From assembly GCA_026986655.1 (NCBI GenBank), contig JALSOD010000190.1:1-35467 (forward strand): DNA of 35,467 nucleotides, read 5' to 3'. The notes below the pieces were generated by a model. That model made no database searches and had not been told where the DNA came from. It was given only the letters and a program-made list of their open reading frames with translations. This DNA is from a candidate division WOR-3 bacterium. Its GTDB lineage: Bacteria > Hydrothermota > Hydrothermia > B15-G9 > WFZT01. The position numbers and the translations under genes were made by a program. This document shows positions 8,280 through 23,845 of this stretch, in pieces; the stretch's first letter is position 1; each line of letters begins with the position of its first letter.

Positions 8280-8740
8280 AATAATCTTCTAAGGGTATCT
8301 TTATCGATTCTTATTCCAGCCTTCACTAATTTTTCAATTTCAGTGTTCAGATCTTTAATTAAACCGAGTTTATATGCTTTCAGTAATATACCTAAGGTTC
8401 CAACGATCTTAATACCCCTTCTTTCGGCTATCTTTCTTCCTTTTCTTTCATCAATTATTAATGGTAATTTAAGTTTTTCAGCTAACATTATAGCTTCAGC
8501 CTCTCCTCTTCCCAAAATTAGCTCCAATTCAGGGCTTATTTGAGCTGTTTCCACCTTAATCCAGCCATTATTTACACCTTCCTCCACCTCTTTGCTACCG
8601 GCCCTTCCAGCTCCAACTACCACAACCTCACGATAAACGGATTTAGGAATGTATACAAGCTTAAATAAATCCTTGAGTAGGTTAAATCTGTCTATTTTGG
8701 CGAGTAAAATTAGTGGTGATGAGTTAGATACTGTCGACAT
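8276..8740 (-). CDS. DUF3368-type PIN-like nuclease toxin (pair 2)
   Basis: 154 aa: STVSNSSPLILLAKIDRFNLLKDLF...GEAEAIMLAEKLKLPLIIDE. It overlaps its antitoxin gene. Confidence 0.8.
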   Translation of the reverse strand: MSTVSNSSPLILLAKIDRFNLLKDLFKLVYIPKSVYREVVVVGAGRAGSKEVEEGVNNGWIKVETAQISPELELILGRGEAEAIMLAEKLKLPLIIDERKGRKIAERRGIKIVGTLGILLKAYKLGLIKDLNTEIEKLVKAGIRIDKDTLRRLL

Positions 8741-8993
8741 TTTCGATCTCTTTTTTGATCTCCTCTTCCGAGTATTCTAATATGGGAATACCTCTTCTGT
8801 TTAATTCATCGATAAAATCAGCTATAGGTATCTCAGCTAACTTCGAAGCTTGCTCAAGTGTTAAATAACCCTTGCTAAACAGTTCTACCGCAAGTAGAAG
8901 CTTAATATTTCTATCTAACCTCCTATCGACTTTATAGAACTCTAAGACATCGTATATTTCCTTGGGAATTCTAATTCGAACAGTCTTCTCCAT
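8724..8993 (-). CDS. UPF0175-family antitoxin-like protein (pair 2)
   Basis: 89 aa: LAVELFSKGYLTLEQASKLAEIPIADFIDEL. It lies upstream of and overlaps the PIN gene. Confidence 0.8.
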   Translation of the reverse strand: MEKTVRIRIPKEIYDVLEFYKVDRRLDRNIKLLLAVELFSKGYLTLEQASKLAEIPIADFIDELNRRGIPILEYSEEEIKKEIENVDSI

Positions 8994-9022
8994 ATTACTT
9001 CCTCCTCAAAAAGTTTATTTAA

Positions 9023-9436
9023 CTATTCCTTAACATACTGCCCCCCAACCGGAATAAACCTCTTCGGCTTTATCGGCTTGTCGTATTTCTTAATATCTTC
9101 GAGCTCTATGACAAGCCACTTTTTCTTACCCTCACCTCTTCGACTCCACCTACTCTGAGATTTAACGTATTCTCTAAGCTCCTCTCTCGTCAGAAATACT
9201 CTATCACCATAAATTTCAAAGACCTTCATAGGATCGTCGATCAGCTTGATTTCCTTTATCTTAGCTTCCCCCACAAATCCTTGATCTTCTCTCGATTGGT
9301 AAAACACGAACTTCATCCCGGGCTTTAGCTCCTTAAAGCATGTAGCAGGCTTGACGAATACATCTTTACCCTCTTTAAAGAACCTATCCACGAACCGTTT
9401 TGGAATTGGGAATGCTACGCCTACAATCTTTGCCAT
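9023..9436 (-). CDS. PUA-like/ASCH-fold small protein (archaeal DUF365-like)
   Basis: 137 aa, 9 nt downstream of the pair-3 PIN gene. The beta-rich core KPGMKFVFYQSREDQGFVGEAKIKEIKLID plus the C-terminal KPKRFIPVGGQYV resembles ASCH/PUA-like folds. The fold call is tentative. Confidence 0.45.
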   Translation of the reverse strand: MAKIVGVAFPIPKRFVDRFFKEGKDVFVKPATCFKELKPGMKFVFYQSREDQGFVGEAKIKEIKLIDDPMKVFEIYGDRVFLTREELREYVKSQSRWSRRGEGKKKWLVIELEDIKKYDKPIKPKRFIPVGGQYVKE

Positions 9437-9445
9437 GAAATCACC

Positions 9446-9937
9446 TCACAAACTTTCTATAACCTTTCTCGCCTTCTCATACACATCAACACTTAACCAC
9501 ATAACGTTTGCAAGCTTTTCTAAATCTTTCAATCCATCCTCTTTTGAAATTAATCCTAACCTAACCGCTTTAATGATTAGACCTACCGAACCTACGACTT
9601 CTAAGCCTAAGCCCAAAGCGAATTTTCTAGCATCTGAATCGTCTAATAGCACTGGAACGTTCAAGGATTTAGCAAGCAGGATTGCACAAGCTTCACCACG
9701 ATGTATTCCTACTTTCTCCGCCAACTGGTCCGCATTAGTAGGATCATCCATGACTTTTATCCAATCGACCGAATCGATCAAGAAAGCATCAGGTTTTCCC
9801 TTTTCCTTTCCCTTATCAATCACTTCCTCCTTAACGGTCTTAGGTATCACAATTTCGTTGAAGATATCCTTGAGCAGATTTAGCCTTCCGATCTTGGCTA
9901 AATGAATCAACGGCCCAGCGTTGCTAACTGCTGTCAT
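9446..9937 (-). CDS. DUF3368-type PIN-like nuclease toxin (pair 3)
   Basis: 163 aa: TAVSNAGPLIHLAKIGRLNLLKDIF...GEACAILLAKSLNVPVLLDD. It has a 4-nt overlap with its antitoxin. Confidence 0.8.
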   Translation of the reverse strand: MTAVSNAGPLIHLAKIGRLNLLKDIFNEIVIPKTVKEEVIDKGKEKGKPDAFLIDSVDWIKVMDDPTNADQLAEKVGIHRGEACAILLAKSLNVPVLLDDSDARKFALGLGLEVVGSVGLIIKAVRLGLISKEDGLKDLEKLANVMWLSVDVYEKARKVIESL

Positions 9938-10239
9938 TCCAAAGCCCAGCCTATATCAACTTCAAGATCTTCCAAATCGTATCTGAACGGTATGTTCCTC
10001 TTCCTTAGCTCTTCCAAGGCTTCCCTATATGTTATCCCAGATATCTCAGCCGCTTTCCACAGCGAAACCTCCCCTTCCCTGTACAACTCTAATGCCTTCT
10101 TGATCTTGTATTCCCTGAGCGATTCCGCTATAAGCTTACGAATAAGCGTTCCCTTGTCTATCCCCTCCTCTCTGCTTAACTTTTCGATCTCTTCAACCAT
10201 CTCCTTCGGCAATCTGACCGATGTCGTTACCATCTTCAC
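9934..10239 (-). CDS. UPF0175-family antitoxin-like protein (pair 3)
   Basis: 101 aa: KALELYREGEVSLWKAAEISGITYREALEEL. Confidence 0.8.
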   Translation of the reverse strand: MKMVTTSVRLPKEMVEEIEKLSREEGIDKGTLIRKLIAESLREYKIKKALELYREGEVSLWKAAEISGITYREALEELRKRNIPFRYDLEDLEVDIGWALE

Positions 10240-10555
10240 AATTACATCTTAATACAAAGTATACTTAAGCTTTTGGTTTGAAAACAGCAGAATCTGTTTA
10301 CGGATTACCAAAAATGCAGTCCGGACTTACAGAAAAATCCTACACTTAGCAATGTTAACATCGTGTATGAAATTCTGCCAGAATCCTCAGCTCCAAACTT
10401 AAAAGGACATTTGAGATTGTATTTTTGAGGATGTGTTATTAGGAGGAAGAGGAATTAATGAAAATACCGCAGAAAATCTTTACTACTCGAAAGACTTCAG
10501 AAACGCCCATAGCGAAAAGATAATTCCGAATATCACCATATTACCAATGTTTTTC

Positions 10556-11665
10556 TCATACCTGTCTGAGGTATGCCAACACAATCAGGTCATTGCCATT
10601 TTGTTTTATTTCTATTTTTTCAGTGTTTTCGAAATTTGAACAGAGCTCATTTTCAAGCATGAGCTTAATCGCCCTAGCCATTGAATAAATGACGATTTCG
10701 TCGTCTTCATAGCATTTAGCGAATTTGGGGAAAGGTATTTCGACAACATAATAATTCTCTTTATCGGTTTTTTGGCTTATCTCAAGCAGTTTGACAACTT
10801 CCTCACTCAACTTTTCAGTATCTAATTGAGCTGAAGGATTGATTAGTTTTGCAATACCACGTTTCTCGAGCTTTAATTTTCTTTTGTTTTTAGAGTTCAA
10901 AATTTTCAGCTGGTAGATATTTGCAGTTTTTCTGTTCCAGAATCTCAGCCAACTGTCCAGTGTCATCACTGGGAGTTCTTGATCCAAAATGTAGAGCTTT
11001 CCATTAATTTCAATACCTGCTGCAACATGTCGTGGGATTGAAATGAAGCAAATCTGGCTGTTGGGGATTAAATTATAGAGTGAAACAGCTGTAAGTTTTG
11101 CATAGTCTCTACATATAGCTAATCTGTACTTGAGGATTTTATCGACTTGGAGAGTTATGTTGAATGTATCTTGCAATTTAAAGCCTGGTATTCTCGATTT
11201 TAGAGCAGAATACTTTAAAACTAGATAGCCGATGAGAGCTAAAATAGCTCCAAAAACTAGTGAAAGGCCTGCAAGTTGAGCTACTGGATAAAATTTCTGG
11301 GCCTGTAAGGGATTAACCGAAAATATCCACAATGTGAAGATTAAAATCGTTGCAATTAATGTTGTGGCGTACGAAAGCATTAAAGTAAAATTTACTACTC
11401 CCATTAAGAATAAAATAAAAATTAAAATATATTTTATATCATTATTACTTAATGGAAGAAGATATATTGAAATAGCTAGTAAGAAATACAAAATCAACGA
11501 ATAATGCATTCTATCCACCCAAAAAGTAATGTTCCTGTTCTGCCATTCTAGCAAATTGACTAAAGTTTCCTTTTCTGATTTTCTTTTGAGCTTTTTTGAT
11601 AGTTCTATTATTTTCGGGTCTTTTAGTTCATCTAAATTCGGTAAAAATTGCTTTTTACCCCCCAA
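10556..11665 (-). CDS. Multi-pass membrane protein with a transglutaminase-like Cys-His-Asp core; N-terminus probably disrupted at a G6 run
   Basis: 369 aa from a TTG start. It has 4-5 hydrophobic helices, then AICRDYAKLTAVSLYNL (Cys), PRHVAAGIEINGKLYILD (His...Asp). A 28-codon ORF (11741..11655) with a good AGGAG site ends inside the G6 run (11658-11663) one frame off. Confidence 0.6.
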   Translation of the reverse strand: MGGKKQFLPNLDELKDPKIIELSKKLKRKSEKETLVNLLEWQNRNITFWVDRMHYSLILYFLLAISIYLLPLSNNDIKYILIFILFLMGVVNFTLMLSYATTLIATILIFTLWIFSVNPLQAQKFYPVAQLAGLSLVFGAILALIGYLVLKYSALKSRIPGFKLQDTFNITLQVDKILKYRLAICRDYAKLTAVSLYNLIPNSQICFISIPRHVAAGIEINGKLYILDQELPVMTLDSWLRFWNRKTANIYQLKILNSKNKRKLKLEKRGIAKLINPSAQLDTEKLSEEVVKLLEISQKTDKENYYVVEIPFPKFAKCYEDDEIVIYSMARAIKLMLENELCSNFENTEKIEIKQNGNDLIVLAYLRQV

Positions 11666-11956: not shown

Positions 11957-14900
11957 TTAGATATTTTTACTTGCTTTTCTCAGCCTATAGACATAATATG
12001 GCCTATATTCAATCTCAAAATCTAATTTATTCACTGGATCGTTAATTATTTCAAGGGTGGTCCTTGTTCGATCGAGAGCGTACCTAACAACGTAAAGGTA
12101 ATACGTTTTACCGTAGAATTTTGCAGCTTTAAACTCATTCTCGGTAAGAGTAATTTTTTCAGGCTCATTCTTGAACGATTTTACTTCGATTCTTCTTTTT
12201 TCGCCAGTGATTGGATCAAAGCTTTCGATATCATATCCTCTTCCCTCAGCTGAAACATCTTTGGGTATCCTTCCCTCTTTTTCTTCCCACTTTAATACAA
12301 ACTCCATACCAGCAAGCTCAACATCCCTCTTCTTTTTCCATAACTCGGGATCAAATTCCTCGATGATATCAGTGATTTTACTCAGAATAGCCCTGTCCTT
12401 GGTACTCTCGGCAACACCTATAAGCAAATCACTTACATTCTCTGGCTTCAAAACCCAAAACTCAGCTATAGGTTCCGAAAGCTTCTCAATTACTCTTAAA
12501 GTTCTTGCGTATTCTCTTTTCTTCTGTTCTTCAATCTCTTTTAGTCTAATCTTTGCTACACTTTCATCAAAGTAACGCTTGTAGTAGTCTTCTCCCATTT
12601 TAAGAGCTTCTAAAGCTCTCTTTACCCTCTGCATTAGATACTGCCTTTGCTCGCTCTTTAATCTCTCGATGTATTCCTTGTTAGAAATTTCAAGCTTTTT
12701 GGGGCTTAATCTTTTGAAAATCTCTTTTTCGATATCTTCGGTAAGAACAAGAGGCTCAAGAGTCTGCAAAAAGCTATAAGGTTTGACTTCACCGTTAAAG
12801 ATAACTACTGGAATTTCAAAGAAAGGATTGCCAAAATTATCAAAGAGTTTTAAGATTCTTACTTCACCGTAGCCTTCGGTATCTCCCGTGAAGATTGCTT
12901 TTCCTCTCTTACACATACCAATGTATAGGGCTTTTCTGATCACAGGATTGTCAAGCTTAAGATCCCTTTTGCTGAGAGTGTTTTCATATTTCAGGTCGAG
13001 AATTTCAGCTCTTGTAGGCTTCCTTTCCAGAAGTATACTATCGATATCAATCTCATCGCTTTGTATCTCGAAGAATACAAAATCATCATAGAAGTTTCCA
13101 CTTCCGAGTCCAGCCTCGCGGAAATAAAAGAGATATTTTCGGATATCCTCTTCCGTTATTAACTCAATCACACCCTTATCTTCAAAAAGTTTCTCAGCCC
13201 TTACGTGTCTCTTCGCAGCCTCAGCCTTTTCTAAAACAAGTCTGATTTTTTCAAGAATTGGCTTTCCTCTTTCAAACTTCTCTTTTACACCTTCAGCCGC
13301 CTTTTCAACTTCATCCCTAACGTAAGCCTTTCGAATCTCATCTTCAATATCCTTCTCGGAGATTATCGTTCCTATTATCTCAACGCTACCAATATCGAAA
13401 TCTCTTTCAATCGTTCTTATTTTCTCGATAACTACCTCTAAAACCCTTTTTTCAACTTTAAAAACGGGTAACATACTATAGATAAATATATTGTTTTTCT
13501 GTCCGTAACGGTAGACTCTACCTACCCTCTGAATGTACACAACCGGATTCCATGGTATTTCGTAATGAATTATAACGTTAGCCGCCTGTAGATTAAGACT
13601 TTCACCTGCAGCATCTGTAGCAACCAATATTTTAGCTCGATTCCATAGCTCTGCAACAGCATTCTTCTTTTCTTCATGACTCATTCCACCGTGAATTATC
13701 ACGACATTTTCGGGACCATAAACATCTTCAAGGACTTTCTTAAGGCTAAAGAGTGTTGCAAGAAATTGCGTGAAAATTATTATCTTGTATCCCCTTTGTA
13801 GTGGTTCCATAATTATCTGCAAAAGCTTCTTAGTCTTGCTATCTCTTCCCCTTTCAAGTAATTTCTCTCCAAGCTCTATTAATTCCTGTAGAATTTTCTT
13901 TTCCGTTTCAATAAGCTCTCTCTTTTCTGGAGGAACGTATTCCAAAATTTTGTTTCTCAGTTCTTCAACTTTTGCATCATCTCCTTCTTCTTCAGCCTGA
14001 TTGATTTGTGTTAAGAGTTCATCAAGGTTGTAAGTTTCTGCGGTTCCTTCGATAAGTCGCTTTAGTCTTCTTTTTAGAGCGGCAACACCTGCGGCGATAC
14101 TCGATGAAACCGTTCTTCCAATAATTGTAGCAACAAGTCCAATACCCCTATTATTCTCTTGTTCAGCAAGCTTGTAGTAATTCCTAATGTAATCCTCAAC
14201 TCTCCAGTAAAATTCTTTCTCTTTTTTATCTGGTTCTATTTCAAACGTTTGAGTTATAACCGCCTGAGGAAATATCTTCTTTCCTTCAAGATCGACAGCA
14301 TCTCTCTTCTTTCGCCTAAAAGTATAATTTCTAACGAACTCCTCCCAGTTAGTCTCATCAACGTTCCTGTTTATCAGACTAAGTCTATAAATGAAGTTCT
14401 CCTCCTTGCCATCGTGAGGGGTAGCTGTTAATGCAAGCATATGCCTCGTCCTATCCCTTAAAACTTGAATAAGCTGGGCTCTTCTGTTTTCGGGTGTAGC
14501 TCTGTGAAGTTCATCAACGACAACTATATCCCATCTATACTGCCCTTCTTCAATTCTGGATAACCATCTTTCACTCTTTAGCGTATCCATTGAGGCTATC
14601 AACCATTTCTGCTTAAGCGGATCTTTTCCTTCATTAAGGACTTCCTTTAAAAGTGAGAATTTCACTCCAAATTTGCTTTCCAGTTCGTCCTGCCACTGAT
14701 ACTGGACAGTCGGAGGTGTAACTATTAGAATTCTCGTATTTTCATTTCGCAGAATCATCTCCTTAATGAATAACCCGGCGAGTATGGTCTTACCTAATCC
14801 CGTTTCGTATGCTATTAACACTCTTACGGGCATTCCGCTATCTGCTAAATCAAGGAGGTTGAGAAAGTCTTCAAGCTGATATGGTAGGAGATTAATCTTT

Positions 14901-14989
14901 GATGCAGCAAGAACGCTGATAGGATCGTAAATATACTTTGTGTAGAGGTAGTATGAATCGCATGCAACTCTAAAGAGGGGATATAGCAT
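11957..14989 (-). CDS. SNF2-family (SF2) helicase/translocase with a C-terminal DUF3883-like PD-(D/E)xK nuclease-fold domain
   Basis: 1010 aa. Helicase motifs: LLPYQLEDF (Q/Ia-like), ETGLGKT (I), VVVDELHRA (II), LTATPH (III), ILVATDAAGESLNLQ (V), QRVGRVYRYGQ (VI). C-terminus: ELAGMEFVLKWEEKEGRIPKDVSAEGRGYDIESFDPITGEKRRIEVKSFKN...LTENEF..A.....YYLYVV (DUF3883-like). Confidence 0.85.
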   Translation of the reverse strand: MLYPLFRVACDSYYLYTKYIYDPISVLAASKINLLPYQLEDFLNLLDLADSGMPVRVLIAYETGLGKTILAGLFIKEMILRNENTRILIVTPPTVQYQWQDELESKFGVKFSLLKEVLNEGKDPLKQKWLIASMDTLKSERWLSRIEEGQYRWDIVVVDELHRATPENRRAQLIQVLRDRTRHMLALTATPHDGKEENFIYRLSLINRNVDETNWEEFVRNYTFRRKKRDAVDLEGKKIFPQAVITQTFEIEPDKKEKEFYWRVEDYIRNYYKLAEQENNRGIGLVATIIGRTVSSSIAAGVAALKRRLKRLIEGTAETYNLDELLTQINQAEEEGDDAKVEELRNKILEYVPPEKRELIETEKKILQELIELGEKLLERGRDSKTKKLLQIIMEPLQRGYKIIIFTQFLATLFSLKKVLEDVYGPENVVIIHGGMSHEEKKNAVAELWNRAKILVATDAAGESLNLQAANVIIHYEIPWNPVVYIQRVGRVYRYGQKNNIFIYSMLPVFKVEKRVLEVVIEKIRTIERDFDIGSVEIIGTIISEKDIEDEIRKAYVRDEVEKAAEGVKEKFERGKPILEKIRLVLEKAEAAKRHVRAEKLFEDKGVIELITEEDIRKYLFYFREAGLGSGNFYDDFVFFEIQSDEIDIDSILLERKPTRAEILDLKYENTLSKRDLKLDNPVIRKALYIGMCKRGKAIFTGDTEGYGEVRILKLFDNFGNPFFEIPVVIFNGEVKPYSFLQTLEPLVLTEDIEKEIFKRLSPKKLEISNKEYIERLKSEQRQYLMQRVKRALEALKMGEDYYKRYFDESVAKIRLKEIEEQKKREYARTLRVIEKLSEPIAEFWVLKPENVSDLLIGVAESTKDRAILSKITDIIEEFDPELWKKKRDVELAGMEFVLKWEEKEGRIPKDVSAEGRGYDIESFDPITGEKRRIEVKSFKNEPEKITLTENEFKAAKFYGKTYYLYVVRYALDRTRTTLEIINDPVNKLDFEIEYRPYYVYRLRKASKNI

Positions 14990-14993
14990 GATC

Positions 14994-15470
14994 TCACCCT
15001 ATAAAGATGTCTCCAAACTTTTCCTGAAAAGCTTTAAGAATGAAATTGAATTCATGAGACTCAAGTACTCCTAAACCGTAGCCATCGATGTAATCTTGAA
15101 TCTTTACGAACTTCTTAACTACTGGCTCTCTTGAAAAGATCATAGCTGAAAAGGAAACTCGCCAAGGAAAGAGTACTCTTTTTGATTTAAGCTCAATATC
15201 CCAAATTGGAGTTTGATCATCAAAAAATCTCTCTTTTATGACTCCTATGGCATGAATTTCTCCCGTTTTCGCAATTTGAAAAACTGCAACATCAAAAGGT
15301 TTTATTTGATTATATTTCCTTAAGAAATTTCTCCAGTTCTTATTCAGCTTATCTTTTAGTTTCTCTCGTTCCTCACTGACATAATCTGGATCGAAGAACC
15401 CCCACAGCAAGTGCCTACATCCAGTTTCAATGTTTTCAAGGCTATGAGAGCTGAAGATCCAGTAAGTCAT
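14994..15470 (-). CDS. EVE/PUA-like small protein (divergent paralog of 22412..22858)
   Basis: 158 aa. MTYWIF...LLWGF, IKPFDVAVFQ, GEIHAIGVIKERF and LFPWRV align by eye with MAYWLC...[27 protein letters not shown] and TFPWRV of the other ORF. Its ATG overlaps the methyltransferase stop (ATGA). Its stop is 4 nt from the helicase ATG. Confidence 0.5.
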   Translation of the reverse strand: MTYWIFSSHSLENIETGCRHLLWGFFDPDYVSEEREKLKDKLNKNWRNFLRKYNQIKPFDVAVFQIAKTGEIHAIGVIKERFFDDQTPIWDIELKSKRVLFPWRVSFSAMIFSREPVVKKFVKIQDYIDGYGLGVLESHEFNFILKAFQEKFGDIFIG

Positions 15471-18085
15471 TTAACACCCCACCTTTCCAATCCAATCGTC
15501 TCTATATGCTTTAATATCTCTGCAGCTTTCTTTGCTTCTCTGTCGTTCTGTCTTTTTGGATCTTGTCTAATCTTTGCGAGAGCTTTAAGGACACCGATTA
15601 TGGCTTTCCTTGAATACGGACACTCGCTCACGACTTTATCAAATCCCTTTAGCCCTTCGATGTCATAAGCCCTTAGGGCTCTGTGAACGTAATCGATTAG
15701 GCTACTGCCCTTTATAGCATCATAGCCAGCAACTTCAAGGTTAAGATCTCCTCTGTAGTAATCTTGGAGGATAACGACTTTCCTACCCTTCTTCTTTTCT
15801 ACCTTAATGATTCTGCTCTTTTCAAGGTCTTTTTCGTTCAATCCAAGGCTTTTAATGAACTGGTTGGCTGTGTCGTAGTCCATCGTATCCATACCGTTAA
15901 GACGGGAGTAAACGTAGAACGTCGTAACAGGATCGGCTTCCTCTCCGATCGTCTTTCTTGTTATGTATTTTGCCATTATCGTTTGAGCGATTTCAATCGC
16001 ACTCTTAGCAGTTATCTTACCTGAATAACTCTTAATTTCCGCGTAGTTCGTGAGAACTTCTAAAGCAACTCCCATTGCAGCGACGAGAAGATCGGAACCC
16101 TTAAGTCCGTATTTTTCTAACATCTCCGCTCTTTCGTAGATTCTCCGCTCAATTTCTGGCATTATATCCTCAAGAAAGCCTACTTTGTTTTCCTTTCTCT
16201 TTCTTGCTGAAATTATTAGGCTATGGTATATGGACTTCTTTCCTCTTGCAACTGAACTCTCGCTATGTTCAGTATGAATTGGGAAAGTTGCGGTAATGTT
16301 AAAGCCAGACAGTCTTAAAGCTTCAAGAACAAAATACCAAGCTTCGGGGTTTTTATGAGCAAAGAATAAGACGAGAATTCCATCATCGTCAAGGAGGTTG
16401 TATATGTTCTGCATTGTTTTTATAAAGAGCTTGTTGAAGAACTCTTTGTCTCTGTCTCCTCCAACGTCGAGTTCTTCCTTTGTTTCTACTCTGTCGTTCT
16501 TGAAGAATCTGGACTCTTTTTCAAAGAGATGTCCGATTATACGCTTGTGCCAAATGTAGAAAACCTCACTGACCTCTCCATACGGAATATCGTCGTAGTA
16601 GGGAGGATCAGTAACTATAACTCTAAACGTCTTCTGAGGTTTCCATGAAGCAGTGGACTCGTTTATGATCTGAATATTGCTGTTTGTGTTGGAAAGTTTC
16701 TCAATTGAATATTTTAAAGCGTCAAGAATGTCGTTTATATTGTTTACAAAAGTGCCAGATGATTTTACAAATGGGTTTACTTCAATGTGATTCCACATCA
16801 TTGCAATTCCTCTTTGAGAGAAAACGTGATTTACAACTTCGTATGATGCTTCCCAACTTGCTGCTCTTGAATTAAAGCGTAGATTTTTTGTTATGATAGA
16901 CGCAAGATATACACCTATTGCCTTTGCATACTCTTCATCTTTCTTAGCTATTTCATTAACAATCTTTCTCGCTTTTTCAGCATATTTTATCATCAGGAGT
17001 AACTGTCTTGGATTGAAGAGCTGATACCATTTTGGCAGATATAAATATATCCACATAGCTCTATTATTCTCTGGGATATTTCCATCGGGAATCAATCCCT
17101 CACGATAAAACCTGAACCAGTTCTTCTTTAACTCTTTCTCAGCTTCTTTAAAAGCTTTTAAATCCTCATCAGAAGGAATATCGTATTCTTTACCACCTCT
17201 ATTGCCAGAAAGTAAAACAACAGCAAGCAATTTCTCTTTCTCATTCTCTCTTATCTGCTTCACAATCTCTTCATTGGGTATGTGCGCTCCACATTTCAAG
17301 CAAACTCCATTTCCCCTTGAGACGTTTCCTTCTGGAGCCTTACCTTCTTTAATCTCAAGCTTCAGCTCGTTACCTTCAATCTTATAGGCAAGATACAGGT
17401 TCTTGCCACTTTTAGTCTTAGCAAGTTGCCACGAACCAACCAAAGGCGTTTCAAATCCACACTGTGGACATTTAACAACCCAAGCATAGATGTATGCTGC
17501 TACATCCTTTCCATTATGTTTTGGATAGAATTTGCCAAGATCTTCTTTAAGTTCGTTGAAGATTTGATTTGCATACTTCTTAACATCGTAGTAAAGTTTC
17601 ATTCCATATTTCTTTGGATATTCAAGAGTAGCCTTCAAAATTAGGTAAGCAACAGGATTGTAATCGACTGCAACGACGTTACATCCAAGCCTTAAAGCTT
17701 CAAAAGGAATCGAGCCTCCACCAGCAAATGGATCGAGAATCGTTGGAATTTCTCCCCACGTTTTGATTATTGCATCTCTCAAGTATTCAGCGGGAGGATC
17801 TTGAGTATGTGCTCTTGGACCCTCGTCTATATTTCTTGGGATTCTTAAGATATGTAGCAAACTTGTTTTCAAGTTTCCATTATCCATAAACGACTTCGGG
17901 ATGTTATCTTTAGAAAGCAGAGCACCCAATACTGCGGCTCTTGCGGTTATTAAGGGTTTTCTCGCCCACCAGTAGTGTAATTCGAAAATGGGTGGTTTAG
18001 CGTTTCCAAGCTTCTCCTTTCTTGCCTCCTCACTTATTTCCTCAGTTGGGATAAACTCTTCAATTAGTAACCTTTTCATAAGCAT
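15467..18085 (-). CDS. DUF1156-type Zn-ribbon DNA methyltransferase (N6-A or N4-C class, DPPY catalytic motif)
   Basis: 872 aa. N-terminal LHYWWARKP (DUF1156 signature), DPFAGGGSIPFEALRLG (SAM motif I), CPQCG...CLKCG (Zn ribbon) and VTDPPYYDDIPY (motif IV). The start may be the third codon (ATG 18079), which is better spaced from the GGTGA that overlaps the vapC stop. Confidence 0.85.
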   Translation of the reverse strand: MLMKRLLIEEFIPTEEISEEARKEKLGNAKPPIFELHYWWARKPLITARAAVLGALLSKDNIPKSFMDNGNLKTSLLHILRIPRNIDEGPRAHTQDPPAEYLRDAIIKTWGEIPTILDPFAGGGSIPFEALRLGCNVVAVDYNPVAYLILKATLEYPKKYGMKLYYDVKKYANQIFNELKEDLGKFYPKHNGKDVAAYIYAWVVKCPQCGFETPLVGSWQLAKTKSGKNLYLAYKIEGNELKLEIKEGKAPEGNVSRGNGVCLKCGAHIPNEEIVKQIRENEKEKLLAVVLLSGNRGGKEYDIPSDEDLKAFKEAEKELKKNWFRFYREGLIPDGNIPENNRAMWIYLYLPKWYQLFNPRQLLLMIKYAEKARKIVNEIAKKDEEYAKAIGVYLASIITKNLRFNSRAASWEASYEVVNHVFSQRGIAMMWNHIEVNPFVKSSGTFVNNINDILDALKYSIEKLSNTNSNIQIINESTASWKPQKTFRVIVTDPPYYDDIPYGEVSEVFYIWHKRIIGHLFEKESRFFKNDRVETKEELDVGGDRDKEFFNKLFIKTMQNIYNLLDDDGILVLFFAHKNPEAWYFVLEALRLSGFNITATFPIHTEHSESSVARGKKSIYHSLIISARKRKENKVGFLEDIMPEIERRIYERAEMLEKYGLKGSDLLVAAMGVALEVLTNYAEIKSYSGKITAKSAIEIAQTIMAKYITRKTIGEEADPVTTFYVYSRLNGMDTMDYDTANQFIKSLGLNEKDLEKSRIIKVEKKKGRKVVILQDYYRGDLNLEVAGYDAIKGSSLIDYVHRALRAYDIEGLKGFDKVVSECPYSRKAIIGVLKALAKIRQDPKRQNDREAKKAAEILKHIETIGLERWGVK

Positions 18086-18478
18086 TCACCTTATCCAGAG
18101 TATATCTGGATAGACTCCTTCAAATTCTCTATCACCCGTAACTATAATTCCTTTCTTATCGATAGCTGTTGCAACGACGAAGGCATCCGCATAAGATAAG
18201 CTATACATAGCTTTAATCCTTCCGGCAGTCAAAGCTAAGCTTTCGTTAACTTCTACAAACTGAATGGGTAATCTTTTTACAATTGCTACCGCTTCATTGG
18301 CCTTTGCAGTCCCAAATTCTCTTGCAACGATGTAGTAAACCTCCCCAAGATTGACGTAGTTCATGAACAGTTTTATTTCACCCTTTTCAGCCTTATCAAT
18401 AAGTTCTTCGATCTTATCTGCTCCTTCCTCATTACCGAGATATGCAAGAACGGCAAAGCTATCTAAGACGTAATTCAT
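18086..18478 (-). CDS. vapC: PIN-domain toxin VapC
   Basis: 130 aa: MNYVLDSFAVLAYL (first acidic residue), ...YADAFVVATAI...IVTGDREF. It overlaps vapB by 4 nt. Its stop is directly adjacent to the methyltransferase ATG. Confidence 0.85.
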   Translation of the reverse strand: MNYVLDSFAVLAYLGNEEGADKIEELIDKAEKGEIKLFMNYVNLGEVYYIVAREFGTAKANEAVAIVKRLPIQFVEVNESLALTAGRIKAMYSLSYADAFVVATAIDKKGIIVTGDREFEGVYPDILWIR

Positions 18479-18705
18479 CTTTTCATCTCCCTCTCTTTCT
18501 CCTCCTTCTTATACTCAGCCATTATCTCGTCAAGCTTCCTCTTAAACTTCAGAAAGCCTCTTCCCTTGGTCTTAGGAACGGGAACTATGACAATCTCACC
18601 CCCAAAATCTAAAATCTCCACTTCGCTCCCAGCTTCAATTCCATACTTCCTCCTCAACTCCGCCGGCAAGACTATCTGCCCTTTAGTCGATATCTTAACA
18701 GGCAT
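18475..18705 (-). CDS. vapB: AbrB/SpoVT-type antitoxin VapB
   Basis: 76 aa: MPVKISTKGQIVLPAELRRKYGIEAGSEVEI is a swapped-hairpin AbrB/MazE-like motif. Confidence 0.85.
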   Translation of the reverse strand: MPVKISTKGQIVLPAELRRKYGIEAGSEVEILDFGGEIVIVPVPKTKGRGFLKFKRKLDEIMAEYKKEEKEREMKR

Positions 18706-18802
18706 ACAATCACCGTATAATGTTCTACCAACTTAGATATATGTTTTACCATACTGCCAATTCTCTTACACATGTCTAGGCTTTAAAATAATGAAATGAT
18801 GA

Positions 18803-19174
18803 TTATATAAGCCCATACAGCACTCTAAAGGCATAAGCTCCCTTCGAATTAGAAGAGAGCTTCCAAGCCCAGAAAAACACCTCCTCAGGCGGTAAATTAA
18901 GGATAACATCAATGAGTTTATACCTTTGCTCAGCCCTCTTCATCGAATTGAGAACTTTAAAAGCAACGTAAATTCTCATGGCTTTCTCGACATCATCTGT
19001 CTTATTTTCCATTTTCAGCTTTTTCATTAAACTCTTTATCGCCTCTTTTCTCCAAGACGTTGCTGAAGCTATTTTCATCCTGTATCCTCTATCTTTGTTC
19101 TGGAAATTCTCGTACATGGTTATATACTTCCCAGTTTCAACGATTTCGTAGATGGTATTCCTAAACGCAAGCAT
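18803..19174 (-). CDS. Hypothetical 123-aa helical protein, translationally coupled to the DUF499 gene
   Basis: The ATG at 19174-19172 directly follows the DUF499 stop (19177-19175, reading TAAATG). I recognise no motif. The C-terminus is [30 protein letters not shown]. Confidence 0.6.
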
Positions 19175-22100
19175 TTACGTCACCCTAAACCACTTCTGCG
19201 ATTTCGTCGTTGCAAGTTGCTCAACAAATAGCTTAAAGTCTTCATCGATCTTAACAGGATTTTCAAGCTCTAATTCAAATGTATATTCAGGATTCTCATC
19301 AAGGCTTGCAATTTTCTGTAAGATTTCATCCACAACTCCAACCTTAGCAAGTTCAACCTCACACTTAAAGGTTGTAACATTCTTTCCTTCAACTTCGACC
19401 TTAATAGTTCCTGAAAGGTTTAAGAATGGAACTGCACCGCTTATACTCAGCGAATCTTCCTTTAAGTTATCCGATCCCTTACCAGAAACTTTGATAAGAG
19501 TAACACTCCTACCACTGAAGTCCTCGAATTTCTCAAGAATATCATCTGAAGAAACTAAAGTCTCTTTAGGTTTAGGTGGCTGTGGAGAAGGTGTAACTAC
19601 TGGAGGCTTAACTCTTCTAAGCTTATCTTTGATTTCGTCAGCGTATTCCCTCCTGAAGATGTATGTTACTTCACCTTCACTTCCGAAAGCGTCTAAGACT
19701 GCTTTAGCTTCATCATTCTCCAATTCTACTCCACTTTCAAGCTTCTGTATCGACGAAATATCCCCAGCAAATAACTCAAGTTTATCTGATCGCTTTGCAG
19801 CATCAATTATATCCTTTCTGCTATACTCTAGGAGCTGTGAATCTATCTTTGAAAATTCCTCGTAATTCTTATCTCCGAGAACCTTAATAATTTTCTCAGC
19901 TATTAAATCAGCTCTCTTCTTCTTCGCAACTTCTAGAAGTTTTTCTGCAAAATCTTTTTTAAGGATGTAATCTGAACTTCTAACCTCAGCTACCTCAACA
20001 CCCATTTTGAGGTTCTTGAGAATTTCATCACTTTTTTCAAGATCGACTTCCTCAGGTTCACAGATTTCTCCTCTGAAAATGGCGATATCTCCAGTTTTAA
20101 CCAACTCTTTCAAGCTTGCTTTTAGAAGCTTTGCTGGGATGAATGGATAGCTCGTTGAATTTGCAGTAGTTTGGATAAGATCTGAGAACTTCACGTAATC
20201 CTTTTCAAGACCCATCACTCCTTCAACGTAGTCTATACTTGCGGTGCTTATGACCTTACCATACTTCTTTTCAAGATCTTCAAATATCCTCTCTGAGTAT
20301 TTTGCCTTATCATCATAGGTAATAGGTGAAATTGGCTTCACTTCTTGATCATTTTTCTTGTAAAATCCTGCATAAGAGTATAAGTTTATCAGCTTTTGTG
20401 CTGCTTTTGCATAGATTTTCTTCTGAATATCTCTAAGCTCCTTTATGAACTCCTTGTCTTTTGACCTTTCCTTCTTCAACTTCTCGCATGCAATCAATTC
20501 TTTAACTGTATCCCTAAACGAAGGTATCTCCGATGGTATTGGAAACAGCAAAATGACTGAATTTCTGTTTGGCGTGGTTATAGAAAGCATTTGTGAGAAT
20601 ATCCTACTGTAAACTTCCCTTCTTACAACATCTTCAGACACACTCTCATACTCCTTAGTGCTCTTTATTGCCCTATAATAGTTAAAAACATCTTCGTAAT
20701 CTATTACAAAAATGTTCAACCTGTTTGGATCGGTATTATCCTTCTTTATCTCCTTATCAAAGATATTAACGGCTATAGTCTCTGTAGATGGGATTATCTT
20801 AGAAATAAACTCTTTTTGGAGATGTAGCTTAACTTCCTCATCTTTAACATCTCTGGCAGCTATCCTGACTAAAGCTCTTGGATTTACTTCAGTCTTGAAG
20901 AAGTATCTATCCGTTCCTTCAGCTCTGAAAAGATGCGTAGTAATCTCATCATATAACCTCTCAAGATATGCGTCTATCGTTGATGGATCGAGATTAGCAT
21001 CGCCAAGCGCTCTAAACACCATTCTACCATTTGCTCCTCGCTTTGTTTCGTCTGGGAAGAGGGAGTAGAGGTAAACCGTAGTTGCGATCCTTACGAAGTT
21101 ACCGAATCTAATCTTACCACCATCAGCCTGCTGGGCGTGGGCCGTTCCTTCACTTGTAGCTATATCGGTTTGGACGACTTGATCGAGCTTCTTTCCAAAT
21201 ATTTCAGCCGTAAGCTTGCTTCTAAGTTCGGAATCAGATAGATCAACCTCACCAGCAGAAATGAAGAGACTTGTTTCTGGTAACTCATCAACATGCCTCA
21301 ATAGGTTCACTATAACTCTCGCCATTATCTTAAGAATTCCTCTCGTTCTCTGGAAGTTCTCATATGTGCCAATTCTACCAAAGAATATCTCTTCAATAAG
21401 TTCAGGATGGAAGGGATAACACTCGGCAAGTCTTTCTTCTCTATAAGCGTCGGCAACCCCGAGCTTGGCAACGTAAAGCTCATGGAGAGCTTTGGCAACC
21501 TTCCTGGCGAAGTTCTCATCAATGTGCTTTATGAATCTTTTCTTCAGAATTCTTATTATATCCTCCTTTGAAACTGGTTCTATCCTTATTGCTCCTCTTT
21601 CAGCTATTGCAGTGATATCTCTCAAAATTTGAGCCTCTTTTTGATAAGCTTCACTTTCTGGTATTGTAAGCACGACAATAGAAGTTTTTGTAGCCTCTGT
21701 AGCAACAAAGAGTGAGTGTATAAAACCCTTGTTTTGGGCAATCCTGCCGTTACCTTCTTTTTCGCCCATAATCTTAGAGAAGTAAACTACGAGTTCATCA
21801 AGGAGGAAAATAACAGGCTTACCGATTCTTCTTATAGCGTTTTCAATTTCTTTAGCGGTAGGAGGTAAAGTTTTTGAAGTTATAGAAACATCTCCTAATT
21901 CCTTCCCAATAACGTTCCAGAGGTTTGTTTCAGGATCAACGTTATGTCCGTCTATTGCAACTATCTTTACTTCAGGGATTGTTTCAAGTCCAAGTTCTTT
22001 AAGAATCTGTCTAATCTCCTGACTATTCAAAGCTACATCTCTATTCTTGAATACATGGTAGAGCATGACAAGAGTATGAGTTTTACCGCCTCCAAAGGTT

Positions 22101-22402
22101 GTATCAAGAATTATTGCATAGGATTCGTCTGAGATGGATGCCACTCGTGACAGGACTCTCATTAGTATGGTCTTCATGTAATCCGAAAAGTGCGTCTTTT
22201 TGAAGAATTGGACAGGATCAAGATAGATAGGATGAGCGTTTCCGCTGAGAAAGTTTGAGAATTCTACTTCAAAGATCGCTTCATTTATGCTTGCATGAGG
22301 GTTCGATGCAATTCTAACTAATTCATCGTCGAAAACGACTTTACCTTCCTTTATTGCATTCTTAAGAGATAAAGACTCAAAGTTGTAGACAGTCATAGTC
22401 AC
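19175..22402 (-). CDS. DUF499-family P-loop ATPase (large, about 1075 aa)
   Basis: LDTTFGGGKTHTL (the FGGGKTH P-loop typical of DUF499) and VIFLLDELVVY (Walker B-like). The likely start is ATG 22396 (GGAGGGTG upstream) rather than the GTG at 22402. Confidence 0.8.
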   Translation of the reverse strand: MTMTVYNFESLSLKNAIKEGKVVFDDELVRIASNPHASINEAIFEVEFSNFLSGNAHPIYLDPVQFFKKTHFSDYMKTILMRVLSRVASISDESYAIILDTTFGGGKTHTLVMLYHVFKNRDVALNSQEIRQILKELGLETIPEVKIVAIDGHNVDPETNLWNVIGKELGDVSITSKTLPPTAKEIENAIRRIGKPVIFLLDELVVYFSKIMGEKEGNGRIAQNKGFIHSLFVATEATKTSIVVLTIPESEAYQKEAQILRDITAIAERGAIRIEPVSKEDIIRILKKRFIKHIDENFARKVAKALHELYVAKLGVADAYREERLAECYPFHPELIEEIFFGRIGTYENFQRTRGILKIMARVIVNLLRHVDELPETSLFISAGEVDLSDSELRSKLTAEIFGKKLDQVVQTDIATSEGTAHAQQADGGKIRFGNFVRIATTVYLYSLFPDETKRGANGRMVFRALGDANLDPSTIDAYLERLYDEITTHLFRAEGTDRYFFKTEVNPRALVRIAARDVKDEEVKLHLQKEFISKIIPSTETIAVNIFDKEIKKDNTDPNRLNIFVIDYEDVFNYYRAIKSTKEYESVSEDVVRREVYSRIFSQMLSITTPNRNSVILLFPIPSEIPSFRDTVKELIACEKLKKERSKDKEFIKELRDIQKKIYAKAAQKLINLYSYAGFYKKNDQEVKPISPITYDDKAKYSERIFEDLEKKYGKVISTASIDYVEGVMGLEKDYVKFSDLIQTTANSTSYPFIPAKLLKASLKELVKTGDIAIFRGEICEPEEVDLEKSDEILKNLKMGVEVAEVRSSDYILKKDFAEKLLEVAKKKRADLIAEKIIKVLGDKNYEEFSKIDSQLLEYSRKDIIDAAKRSDKLELFAGDISSIQKLESGVELENDEAKAVLDAFGSEGEVTYIFRREYADEIKDKLRRVKPPVVTPSPQPPKPKETLVSSDDILEKFEDFSGRSVTLIKVSGKGSDNLKEDSLSISGAVPFLNLSGTIKVEVEGKNVTTFKCEVELAKVGVVDEILQKIASLDENPEYTFELELENPVKIDEDFKLFVEQLATTKSQKWFRVT

Positions 22403-22411
22403 CCTCCATAA

Positions 22412-22858
22412 TTATGACTCAGCTTCTCTTAAAATTAATTCATAATCTTCTTCCGGGATTTCCCGCATAGCCTTTCCCATTAGATGACCACTCCATCTCT
22501 TTTTGTTTGTAATGAATTTGAGCTTCGGAATTAAGGGCTTGAACTCCACGGGTTTGTCGAATATCTTAACAGGCTTAATCTTAACCCTCCAAGGGAAAGT
22601 TTCGTTAGTTTTCATACCCTTAGAACTGAAAATCCTCGTAGAATCCTTAAACGGCTCGGAAACGACTTCGTAAATTCCAACGATCCTCGACTCTTTAACT
22701 TCATCACCAACCTTCTCCTGCTTGAGATAGATCATAAGCTTATCTCCGGGCTTAACCTTAGCGATCGTATTCTTATGCCTCTCCGGAACTCCCCATACAT
22801 TTCGCTCCTTTATCACCTTCCAGTTTGCTTCGTTCGTAATGCAGAGCCAGTAAGCCAT
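22412..22858 (-). CDS. EVE (PUA-like) domain protein
   Basis: [30 protein letters not shown]...[13 protein letters not shown]...[12 protein letters not shown]...[13 protein letters not shown] prefer the start at 22858 because GAGGTGA lies 4 nt upstream; the ORF track starts at 22873. It ends 9 nt before the DUF499 gene. Confidence 0.6.
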
Positions 22859-22876
22859 TAAATCACCTCTCAATCT

Positions 22877-23197
22877 TTATAGCCTCATAGCCTCAGTAAA
22901 CTTCTTAGCGTAATATTCAGAAATAGCATTATCAAGCTCGATAAACTTCTGAACGATTGGATTGTTCTTATTTAGCTTATACATCTTTGCTCTTCCAACT
23001 CTTCTTGTCTCCACAACTATTCCAAGATCCTCTAACGTTTTCCAGATCTTAAGTAAGGTAGTTCTACTAATTCCAGCACCTCTCGCTATCTCCGTTTTGG
23101 AGTAATCGAAAGCCTCGTTATCGATTAAGAAGTCGATTACCCTGATTATCGGATTATCCCTCCCCAAGAACTTCAGGAATATCGTCTCTTCCTCCAT
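22877..23197 (-). CDS. Winged-helix transcriptional regulator (first gene of the defence operon)
   Basis: MEEETIFLKFLGRDNPIIRVIDFLIDNEAFDYSKTEIARGAGISRTTLLKIWKTLEDLGIVVETRRVGRAKMYKLN is an HTH plus wing. The Met at 23197 has GGTGAGAGG upstream. The longer track ORF (to 23335) would overlap the divergent gene. Confidence 0.7.
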   Translation of the reverse strand: MEEETIFLKFLGRDNPIIRVIDFLIDNEAFDYSKTEIARGAGISRTTLLKIWKTLEDLGIVVETRRVGRAKMYKLNKNNPIVQKFIELDNAISEYYAKKFTEAMRL

Positions 23198-23288
23198 CCT
23201 CTCACCTATGGTATTATGGCATATATTGCCATTTTCTGTCACTGTATGACACAAATGTTTAAATCTCTTTTCATCAACGTTCATCAGG

Positions 23289-23558
23289 ATGAACAATGAA
23301 GAACTCCGCAACATTCTGAAAGCTACAATTCTCAAGAAGCTTAAGAGGAGAGGAAAATGGGGACACGCTCATACAAGCTTCGATAAACTAACTTCCGGAA
23401 TTCCAAAGCATTTACGTGGATTGGCTAAAGAAGTTGCCGAGGAATTGATTAAAGAAGGTTTACTAATCGCTAAGCCTACCTCCTACGGTTTGGAGATATC
23501 GTTAAATCCGAGAAGAAAGGCCGAGATCGATGAGATCATTGAGAAATACTTGAAATGA
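23289..23558 (+). CDS. Hypothetical small basic protein (possible winged-helix-like)
   Basis: 89-aa ORF, divergent from the operon regulator. I recognise no diagnostic motif. Confidence 0.55.
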   Translation: MNNEELRNILKATILKKLKRRGKWGHAHTSFDKLTSGIPKHLRGLAKEVAEELIKEGLLIAKPTSYGLEISLNPRRKAEIDEIIEKYLK

Positions 23559-23601
23559 GCACCTAACAGATGGTGATGGTAAAACCAACACGTTAGGTAA
23601 G
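23558..23601. repeat. Palindromic element copy 2 (left arm degenerate: AGCACCTAAC-N24-GTTAGGTAAG)
   Basis: The right arm at 23592-23601 is perfect. The left arm matches 7/10 at the exact 24-nt spacing. It lies between the 89-aa gene's stop and the DUF1922 gene. Confidence 0.45.
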
Positions 23602-23632
23602 AAAGAAGATAAATATATTTTAATCTGGAATA

Positions 23633-23845
23633 TTGGTTGTGAGATACGCTGTAGTTGAATGTCCGATTTGCAGGAAATATCTTGCAATAGATTCAAAGAT
23701 GGGTTTCAGAAAGTGTCCTTATTGCGGTTACGTGAACAAGCTCAACGTTTCGAGAGTTATAAAGAAGTTTAAGAGTCCAAGAGAGGCTTCAGAGTTAGTA
23801 AGAATTCTAAATGAGAGAAATGATGACTTCAAGCCGATGAGATAA
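23633..23845 (+). CDS. Zn-ribbon protein (DUF1922-like)
   Basis: 70 aa from a TTG start, with CPICR...CPYCG (CxxC-x16-CxxC), followed by a basic/helical tail. Confidence 0.65.
   Translation: MVVRYAVVECPICRKYLAIDSKMGFRKCPYCGYVNKLNVSRVIKKFKSPREASELVRILNERNDDFKPMR

Follow-up and report, generated by a model that had tools for sequence, protein, structure and literature searches.

A probably intact Archaeoglobi-type Hma defence locus with a DUF7680-type fourth gene and lineage-specific passenger genes

Introduction

Positions 11957-23197 of a 35,467-nt stretch filed under a candidate division WOR-3 bacterium (JALSOD010000190.1, assembly GCA_026986655.1; the whole stretch is called the window here) hold a run of tightly packed minus-strand genes, among them those for a DUF499-type ATPase, a DUF1156 DNA methyltransferase and an SNF2-type helicase-nuclease. 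The locus raises two questions: to which defence system, if to any, do these genes belong, and which of the smaller genes packed between the large ones are part of the working unit? Our analysis indicates that this is, with high probability, an intact Archaeoglobi-type copy of Hma, a DUF499-centred relative of the bacteriophage exclusion (BREX) systems, in which a core of hmaC, a DUF7680-type gene, hmaB and hmaA is accompanied by lineage-specific passengers and would work as proposed below.

The archaeal operon of a COG1743 methyltransferase, a DUF499 protein and a SWI2/SNF2-nuclease, together with a standalone EVE protein, was described with its predicted logic by Bell, Wolf and Koonin (2020; PMC7641849). 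Hma was named a year later (Payne et al., 2021, PADLOC), and 1,638 instances in 26 phyla have been counted; Rakesh and Krishnan (2026) renamed the group DUF499-centred BREX-related (BR) systems, sorted it into Types 1-3 and drew up a list of backup effectors in these loci, with PIN and other nucleases among them. Published counts of Hma/BR systems also give about 3,600 taxa, about 400 archaea among them, and the distribution of Hma is patchy, consistent with horizontal transfer. An earlier reading of this DNA, made from the letters alone (the sequence-only reading), knew of no mechanistic characterisation, a statement that is outdated: Halomonas HmaA alone protects E. coli against phage T4, and its nickase PD-(D/E)xK domain is required for this (Liu et al., 2024; PMC11232893). 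Hma/BR systems are widespread.

The three large genes encode HmaA, HmaB and HmaC

The products of the window were scanned against Pfam (E<=0.01), PADLOC and NCBIfam models. These homology searches, which the sequence-only reading had proposed, identified its three large genes as HmaA, HmaB and HmaC of the PADLOC system Hma, and its view of the trio as a restriction-modification-like (R-M-like) defence module agrees with what PADLOC and Pfam recognise. Its domain assignments (SNF2 with Helicase_C and NOV_C/DUF3883, DUF1156 methyltransferase, EVE, PIN and MazE/AbrB) were all confirmed, and every motif that it quoted is present in the translations, which read FGGGKTH in HmaC, HYWWARKP, FAGGGS, DPPYYDD and CPQC...CLKC in HmaB, and GLGKT/DELH/TATP/QRVGRVYRYGQ and GYDIES...IEVKS in HmaA.

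The gene hmaA (11957-14989) encodes an SNF2 translocase with a C-terminal nuclease. Its product matches the PADLOC HmaA model at 9.3e-86 and, in Pfam, Helicase_C (5e-25), NOV_C (2.4e-18), ResIII (1e-16) and SNF2-rel_dom (2e-14), which places an SNF2-family translocase at residues ~30-600 and a PD-(D/E)xK nuclease (NOV_C/DUF3883) at residues 891-975; the closest solved relatives are RapA and SsoRad54-like SNF2 proteins. Further PADLOC matches, to the BrxHII, DrmD, DpdE and ZorD models, come through the common SNF2 core only. The helicase domain (ResIII/SNF2) begins at about residue 32 and leaves positions 1-76 of the PADLOC HmaA model unmatched, and N-terminal extensions in archaeal relatives are only about 1-90 residues long. 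By these domain coordinates there is no room for a TUDOR domain at the N-terminus, and an HKD (PLDc) domain found no Pfam match in this protein, which has no N-terminal extension.

HmaB, encoded by hmaB (15467-18085), matches PADLOC HmaB (9.8e-76 and 9e-75), MTase_II (1.6e-86) and Pfam DUF1156 (4.4e-15). Methyltransferase motifs I (FAGGGS) and IV (DPPY) flank a target-recognition insert bearing a Zn ribbon, and DPFAGGG, DPPY and the four Zn-ribbon cysteines (C206, C209, C262 and C265) are invariant across 21 homologues. On these motifs HmaB is predicted to be a DNA methyltransferase, presumably of the N6-adenine type. Three other archaeal Hma loci (L006:10398-18417, L007 and L030) have two DUF1156 methyltransferases in tandem, the second of which is, in L006 and L007, a 1769-aa fusion with beta-propeller repeats.

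HmaC is encoded by hmaC (19175-22402) and counts 1075 aa from a GTG at 22402 or 1073 aa from an ATG at 22396; the ATG is the likelier start, since 1073 aa is the length given by gene callers for identical contigs. The DUF499 label given to this protein on sequence alone was borne out by PADLOC (HmaC 2.8e-58, DUF499 2.8e-39) and by NCBIfam (DUF499_antiphage 8.7e-45, with 153 bits far under the 1200-bit equivalog cutoff), and it found no echo in Pfam, where HmaC has no match at E<=0.01, DUF499 included. A PDB sequence search returned no solved relative. Taking into account its Walker A (FGGGKTH) and Walker B (LLDE) motifs, which precede an uncharacterised C-terminal region of ~400 aa, we assign HmaC to the DUF499-type STAND/ORC-Cdc6-like AAA+ ATPases.

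The locus therefore holds the three proteins by which PADLOC defines Hma, namely HmaA (SNF2/DEAD-box helicase), HmaB (DUF1156 methylase) and HmaC (DUF499 AAA+ ATPase), all with strong matches. Their genes lie on one strand, occur once each and have at most three embedded genes between neighbours, which is the layout set out for Hma by Payne et al. (2024): a DUF7680-type gene, vapB and vapC stand between hmaC and hmaB, and an EVE-like gene stands between hmaB and hmaA. Embedded genes, toxin-antitoxin and other defence genes included, are carried by 62.7% of Hma systems, and have been used to find new defence systems, PIN- and RelE-containing ones among them (Payne et al., 2024).

By open reading frame (ORF) calls and translations, the region 11957-23197 comprises nine tightly packed ORFs on the minus strand, one fewer than the ten first counted. 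The gene junctions quoted in the sequence-only reading are exact: in transcription order, from the winged helix-turn-helix (wHTH) gene to hmaA, they measure 18, 9, 0 (TAAATG), 97, -4 (vapB/vapC), 0, -4 (ATGA) and 4 nt. Identical copies of the locus occur on two independent metagenome contigs, and the closest named relatives are Archaeoglobus and Archaeoglobaceae. Comparison with a 90%-identical relative (L092) gave ratios of nonsynonymous to synonymous substitution rates (dN/dS) of 0.086 for hmaC, 0.051 for the DUF7680-type gene, 0.057 for vapB, 0.044 for vapC, 0.064 for hmaB, 0.127 for the EVE-like gene and 0.065 for hmaA. Since all seven genes common with L092 lie at 0.04-0.13, all seven are maintained as coding genes under purifying selection. 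With the same gene order on independent contigs and these low ratios, the arrangement is not due to chance. A cluster of pseudogenes is ruled out by the intact state of every ORF and by the dN/dS values of 0.04-0.13.

A DUF7680-type gene adjoins hmaC in most related loci

Directly after hmaC, at the TAAATG junction with no intervening nucleotide, lies a gene for a 123-aa protein (18803-19174), which had been put down as an unknown coupled ORF. It belongs instead to a catalogued family, Pfam DUF7680, whose members are near-constant partners of HmaC. The protein has 14 close homologues, all from Archaeoglobi-like sources and AF_2341 among them, and when 1.84 billion representative proteins were scanned in full with HMMER, 33 clusters of the family were returned. 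Taken alone, the window protein matches DUF7680 (PF24728) at E 0.012 with 16.2 bits, under the 24-bit gathering threshold. Of 34 family representatives, 22 match the same model (best 1e-11), the 41 members from bacteria and other lineages are all strong matches, and an hhalign comparison of the Archaeoglobi subfamily with 41 true DUF7680 proteins gave a probability of 95.4% (E 1.7e-8) with a common helix EE-x2-[FY]W-x-[WS]K. The window protein is thus best called a divergent relative of DUF7680.

We then surveyed 80 genome loci retrieved through the methyltransferase, with a profile built from database sequences only and then iterated, and recovered 59 ORFs of the DUF7680 family with the first profile and 67 after iteration. 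In loci that contain both hmaC and hmaB, the gene is present in 52 of 60, and in 45 of these its distance from the 3' end of hmaC is at most 450 nt. Because it is present in 52 of these 60 loci and adjoins hmaC on its 3' side, we regard DUF7680 as the fourth core gene of this Hma clade. It co-occurs with both helicase architectures, in loci whose helicase carries a restriction endonuclease (REase) domain and in loci of the HKD type, and a minimal operon hmaC-DUF7680-hmaB-hmaA is found in Pyrococcus sp. NA2 and on a Sinorhizobium plasmid. A gene-neighbourhood survey had been suggested by the sequence-only reading; in the loci compared here DUF7680 recurs in most, EVE genes recur variably, and the VapBC pair is found again only in L092.

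The AlphaFold2 (AF2) model of the 123-aa protein has four strands followed by five helices, at a mean predicted local distance difference test (pLDDT) score of 72.6, and a Foldseek search against PDB folds gave no match better than E 0.9. DUF7680 proteins had no match in NCBIfam and are annotated as "hypothetical protein" by the Prokaryotic Genome Annotation Pipeline (PGAP), and the literature searched contained no mention of the family. Rakesh and Krishnan (2026) describe a Type-2-specific small protein, named DUF3780 there (supplementary accessions NJI20145.1 and AFT74738.1), as four strands followed by five helices. Pfam found no DUF3780 match among 75 scanned family members. As the topology is the same and HKD-helicase loci carry DUF7680, the two names probably refer to the same component.

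In six Anaerolineae-type loci (L033, L036, L050, L051, L071 and L073) the ORF after hmaC runs for ~330 aa from stop to stop, with the DUF7680 domain as its C-terminal half, which suggests that DUF7680 carries an N-terminal extension or fusion in many bacterial loci of the HKD type.

The gap between DUF7680 and hmaB is a recurrent insertion site

A 97-nt spacer (18706-18802) separates the DUF7680-type gene from vapB (18475-18705, 76 aa), which overlaps vapC (18086-18478, 130 aa) by 4 nt. VapC matches Pfam PIN at 1.7e-18, and VapB, of the AbrB/MazE fold, matches MazE_antitoxin at 5e-13. A PIN gene preceded by, and overlapping, a small AbrB/MazE-fold gene reads as a type II VapBC pair. The spacer holds A/T-rich TATA-like boxes, TTTAAA and ATATAT (both palindromic), and GGTGA precedes the vapB ATG, so that it is possibly a promoter of the pair's own.

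The same slot holds other genes in related loci. In L092 (JGI Ga0256842_1000029) a 4.5-kb block (L092:3814-8374) lies between DUF7680 and vapB; in L093 the slot contains an unrelated pair of a 65-aa protein and a PIN protein; in A. fulgidus and L095 it contains ParE-type pairs on the opposite strand; and on a cyanobacterial plasmid it contains an unrelated PIN pair. The PIN proteins of the slot in different lineages have no detectable similarity to one another. The gap between DUF7680 and hmaB is therefore a recurrent insertion site that has captured unrelated toxin-antitoxin pairs independently.

Two of these loci deserve a fuller description. Three radical-SAM genes make up the L092 block together with two small ORFs on the opposite strand, and an AAA_21 ATPase cassette follows hmaA there. 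The plasmid of Allocoleopsis franciscana PCC 7113 (NC_019742.1; L091:5516-13150) has the order HTH regulator, DUF499, DUF7680, small ORF with PIN, DUF1156, a layout parallel to that of the window with HTH and PIN genes unrelated to those of the window.

Two predicted modified-base readers accompany the core

The EVE-like gene (14994-15470, 158 aa) shares 4 nt with the end of hmaB, stop codon included, and leaves a gap of 4 nt to hmaA. Its product has no match in Pfam, EVE (PF01878) included, and none in PADLOC, and its profile drew nothing useful from PDB sequences. The label "EVE-like", assigned from the sequence alone, was nevertheless upheld by two comparisons: hhalign aligned the protein with the standalone EVE protein of the locus over 128 columns (91.8% probability, E 7e-7; common motifs W-x-WG and FPWRV), and Foldseek placed its AF2 model (pLDDT 86) closest to the EVE proteins 2hd9/1wmm (PH1033) and 2p5d (MJECL36), followed by YTH m6A readers. 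We thus predict, from the model, that it is a modified-base reader of the EVE/YTH-like (PUA-fold) kind.

The family has 112 homologues, MJ_1369 among them, and mostly occupies the gap that separates hsdS from hsdR in Type I restriction systems. In 83 loci (80 from the metagenome scan plus L095-L097), hsdR lies immediately downstream in 27, the order hsdM-X-hsdS was seen in 6, and hsdS lies upstream on an incomplete contig in 6 more; the order hmaB-X-hmaA occurs in the window's own lineage only. Since the family adjoins the 5' side of hsdR in Type I systems and the 5' side of hmaA here, its most likely partner is the translocase-nuclease.

The standalone EVE gene (ORF 22412-22873; 22412-22858 from the ATG at 22858) encodes 148 aa and matches Pfam EVE (PF01878) at 1.2e-27, with 97 bits against a 23-bit cutoff, and NCBIfam PRK00809 at 3.6e-66; its product is likewise a predicted modified-base reader. 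EVE genes also lie near the related Hma loci L010, L027, L078, L092, L093 and that of A. fulgidus, in varying positions.

A possible upstream regulator gene and a candidate promoter

The first gene of the run encodes a small winged-helix-type protein of 106 aa (ORF 22877-23335; 22877-23197 from the probable start), and its probable ATG at 23197 follows GGTGAGAGG. Between this gene and a divergent plus-strand ORF of 89 aa lies an intergenic region (23198-23288) with TTTAAA and ATATAT boxes and a palindrome, ATGGCA-N5-TGCCAT, 19-35 nt upstream of the ATG. We consider the region a candidate promoter/operator, bearing in mind that a palindrome with 6-nt arms can arise by chance.

Comparison with known systems

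The locus agrees with other Hma systems in having hmaA, hmaB and hmaC on one strand with embedded genes, and the SNF2, Helicase_C and NOV_C architecture of its HmaA is that of the tested Halomonas protein. It differs in its gene order, C-(DUF7680)-B-A, in a small fourth gene that is not part of the three-gene definition, in an HmaA that starts ~76 residues into the PADLOC model, in its host, a thermophile-type archaeon, and in its cargo, which consists of VapBC and an EVE-like reader rather than Septu or ABC-ATPase cassettes.

The archaeal system of Bell, Wolf and Koonin (2020) has the same four protein types, standalone EVE included, and in A. fulgidus and L093 the EVE gene lies downstream of the helicase, as drawn by these authors. 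In the window, by contrast, EVE lies upstream and co-directional, and a second, sequence-divergent EVE-like gene stands between methyltransferase and helicase; neither DUF7680 nor VapBC is part of the 2020 description. The orthologous Hma locus of A. fulgidus DSM 4304 (L003:6800-20200, AE000782.1 ~2.089-2.103 Mb) is broken up, as is that of L004, a second A. fulgidus assembly: DUF499 is spread over 2-3 ORFs, the DUF1156 methyltransferase over four and the EVE-like gene over two, and the helicase-nuclease is nearly intact. It looks like a decaying system, with L095 as its intact cousin. The supplementary lists of Rakesh and Krishnan (2026) do not give a classification for A. fulgidus.

With the BR systems of that paper the locus shares the core of DUF499 ATPase, DUF1156 N6-methyltransferase and Swi2-Snf2 helicase-nuclease. 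Like Type 1 it has a C-terminal PD-(D/E)xK nuclease (the NOV_C match, with GYDIES...IEVKS); unlike Type 1, it lacks the N-terminal TUDOR domain and adds DUF7680 to what is a simple three-gene organisation. Like Type 2 it has no TUDOR, and its standalone small gene, whose product is modelled with an alpha+beta fold, may correspond to the one of that type; unlike Type 2, its HmaA is without HKD, whereas the bacterial relatives L033, L045 and L072 have PLDc_2, and proteins of the window's type match Pfam DUF7680 and not the DUF3780 named for that type. On domain content, then, the clade of the window appears to unite the C-terminal REase of Type 1 with two traits of Type 2, the small alpha+beta gene (by its model) and the lack of TUDOR.

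Type I R-M systems resemble the locus in combining a methyltransferase with an ATP-driven translocase-nuclease and in having the 150-aa EVE-like family directly 5' of the translocase-nuclease gene. The locus, however, has no HsdS, HsdR or HsdM homologues, with an SNF2-type motor, an ORC-like ATPase and DUF7680 in their stead. A Type I assignment is ruled out, as Pfam found no HsdM_N/N6_Mtase, Methylase_S or HSDR_N domain in the nine products.

Homology of all three Hma proteins to BrxC, PglXI and BrxHII of Type 3 BREX has been argued (PMC12839542), and in our scans HmaA matched BrxHI|BrxHII at 2e-81, HmaB matched PglX|PglXI weakly (2.7e-8) and HmaC matched BrxC weakly (1.7e-4). The locus differs from Type 3 BREX in that PADLOC detected no PglZ, BrxA, BrxB or BrxL among the nine products and in that the nuclease is fused to the helicase. 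DrmB, looked for as a mark of DISARM as PglZ is for BREX, was also absent from the nine products (PADLOC). DISARM, BREX and Zorya are ruled out as assignments; their matches come only through the common SNF2 helicase (DrmD, DrmA, BrxHI|BrxHII) and a weak BrxC.

The sequence-only reading had not seen this composite architecture described. Such a claim is unsupported, because the pairing with EVE was published in 2020 (Bell et al., 2020; PMC7641849), embedded genes in 2024 (Payne et al., 2024) and PIN and other nucleases were catalogued in 2026 (Rakesh and Krishnan, 2026). The locus is a good example of a named system and not a new kind, and its extra genes are of kinds already reported. New here are DUF7680 as a fourth core gene, an EVE-like family common with Type I systems, and a recurrent toxin-antitoxin slot.

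Proposed mode of action and alternatives

In the explanation that we favour, and consider highly probable, HmaB would methylate adenine in a short host DNA motif and so set a self mark, as its DPPY and FxGxG motifs and the analogy with BREX PglX suggest. HmaC and the DUF7680 protein, translated directly after it, may form a complex that both scans DNA and licenses restriction, picking out DNA that is unmarked or foreign. HmaA would move on DNA by its SNF2 motor and nick or cut with its C-terminal PD-(D/E)xK domain, as a bacterial homologue does. The two PUA-fold readers, EVE and EVE-like, may add recognition of modified bases, the EVE-like protein most likely in concert with the translocase-nuclease, by steering it to hypermodified viral DNA or by tuning it on methylated DNA. 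VapBC would be a separate cassette in the recurrent slot, probably under its own promoter, acting as an addiction module, a backup abortive-infection module or both, and the small wHTH protein might regulate transcription.

Several observations weigh against this explanation. Overexpression of HmaB had no effect on T4 sensitivity (a single experiment so far), and 14.7% of hmaA genes have no hmaB nearby and 19.3% no hmaC; because of this result and the 15-20% of hmaA genes lacking a nearby hmaB or hmaC, the R-M-like logic is unproven. Experimental support comes from the nuclease-dependent defence by a bacterial HmaA homologue; all other steps, and the activity of archaeal Hma as such, we infer. 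The role given to DUF7680 is a guess, since it has no recognisable fold relative. The EVE-like gene is absent from relatives with a 75-78% identical methyltransferase, and EVE is found at different places in close relatives: upstream in the same orientation, upstream but divergent, or downstream by 2.5-3 kb; as EVE thus varies in position and the EVE-like gene is missing from some close relatives, neither reader can be obligatory. Of all the parts, the wHTH protein is the one least firmly tied to the system. HTH matches to it do exist, as its description as a dedicated regulator would have it, and all of them are weak (Pfam E 3e-4 to 7e-3; PADLOC PDC-M05A 1.8e-5 and Csa3 1.3e-4; ArsR/BirA-type 5e-4 in the NCBIfam scan), and none of the 89 related loci scanned (L001-L089) has a homologue, so that a regulator role is possible at most.

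The variable parts lead to an alternative that is compatible with the core model: VapBC, EVE-like, EVE and wHTH may be independent selfish or stand-alone elements in a permissive hotspot, with the four-gene core as the only functional unit. Relatives carry other, unrelated genes in the slot (PIN pairs of different kinds, opposite-strand ParE, radical-SAM genes), the minimal four-gene operon exists free of accessories, EVE changes position and orientation, the window flanks are also rich in toxin-antitoxin genes, and Payne et al. (2024) regard embedded genes as separate defence systems. Against this, the EVE-like gene is coupled in translation to both of its neighbours (4-nt overlap, 4-nt gap), in at least 27 Type I operons its family stands at the equivalent position before the translocase-nuclease, which argues for a working partnership and not for random insertion, and the co-location of EVE with Hma recurs across archaea (Bell et al., 2020). 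We put this alternative at somewhat below an even chance. A greater departure, which we hold to be unlikely, is that there is no methylation-based discrimination of self and non-self, and that HmaA alone is a sensor-effector nickase, for example of viral replication intermediates, like Nhi and Hna, with HmaB and HmaC in regulatory or other roles. The full T4 protection given by HmaA alone in E. coli, the unchanged phage sensitivity on HmaB overexpression and the hmaA genes without partners nearby fit this view. However, HmaB retains all catalytic methyltransferase motifs and its Zn-ribbon recognition insert under purifying selection, the hma trio stays together in 26 phyla and parallels BrxC/PglXI/BrxHII of Type 3 BREX, and T4 DNA is hypermodified, so that a T4 test says little on ordinary protection by methylation.

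We judge it very improbable that the cluster has a role in housekeeping or chromatin, by SNF2 remodelling, ORC-like control of replication or epigenetic methylation, in place of one in defence. HmaC is indeed ORC/Cdc6-like, and the closest solved relatives of HmaA are RapA and chromatin remodellers. Yet the patchy distribution is consistent with horizontal transfer, copies occur on plasmids and beside toxin-antitoxin and other defence genes, the decay of the A. fulgidus locus is not expected of an essential function, and anti-phage activity has been shown by experiment for Halomonas HmaA.

The favoured explanation, an Hma system with a four-gene core, can also be taken further. DUF7680 might be an obligate fourth subunit, produced in concert with HmaC, that connects this ATPase with either the methyltransferase or the motor-nuclease in systems of both the REase and the HKD type, and the EVE-like protein a portable reader serving HsdR or HmaA in turn, within a dual-mode machine. 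If so, the machine would be blocked by host methylation and recruited by foreign base modifications, and the published three-gene picture of Hma would be incomplete in two ways, lacking the DUF7680 subunit and a portable EVE/YTH-like reader. We regard this extension as doubtful. A three-gene reconstitution would omit DUF7680, a near-universal small partner of the ATPase, and the equivalent operon position of the EVE-like family in Type I systems points to the translocase-nuclease as the partner to be considered. As an intact, thermophile-derived copy with a 90%-identical sister locus, the locus could reasonably supply proteins for structural studies.

Flanking genes

The whole window contains no RNA family by Rfam and no tRNA by ARAGORN. 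A short intergenic tandem array (32703-32785) consists of 19-20-nt units in ~3-4 copies with 70-78% matches, and has no Rfam match. On the plus strand, the region 23289-23845 holds the 89-aa ORF divergent from the wHTH gene, which has no family match, followed by a 70-aa DUF1922 zinc-ribbon protein. Downstream of hmaA (8276-11665) lie genes for a DUF553 transglutaminase-like membrane protein, a ribbon-helix-helix (RHH)/UPF0175 antitoxin with a PIN/DUF3368 toxin, a DUF365 protein and a second PIN/DUF3368 protein, a flank rich in toxin-antitoxin genes. Genes of the DUF365 and transglutaminase-like kinds are found beside the Hma locus of A. fulgidus too.

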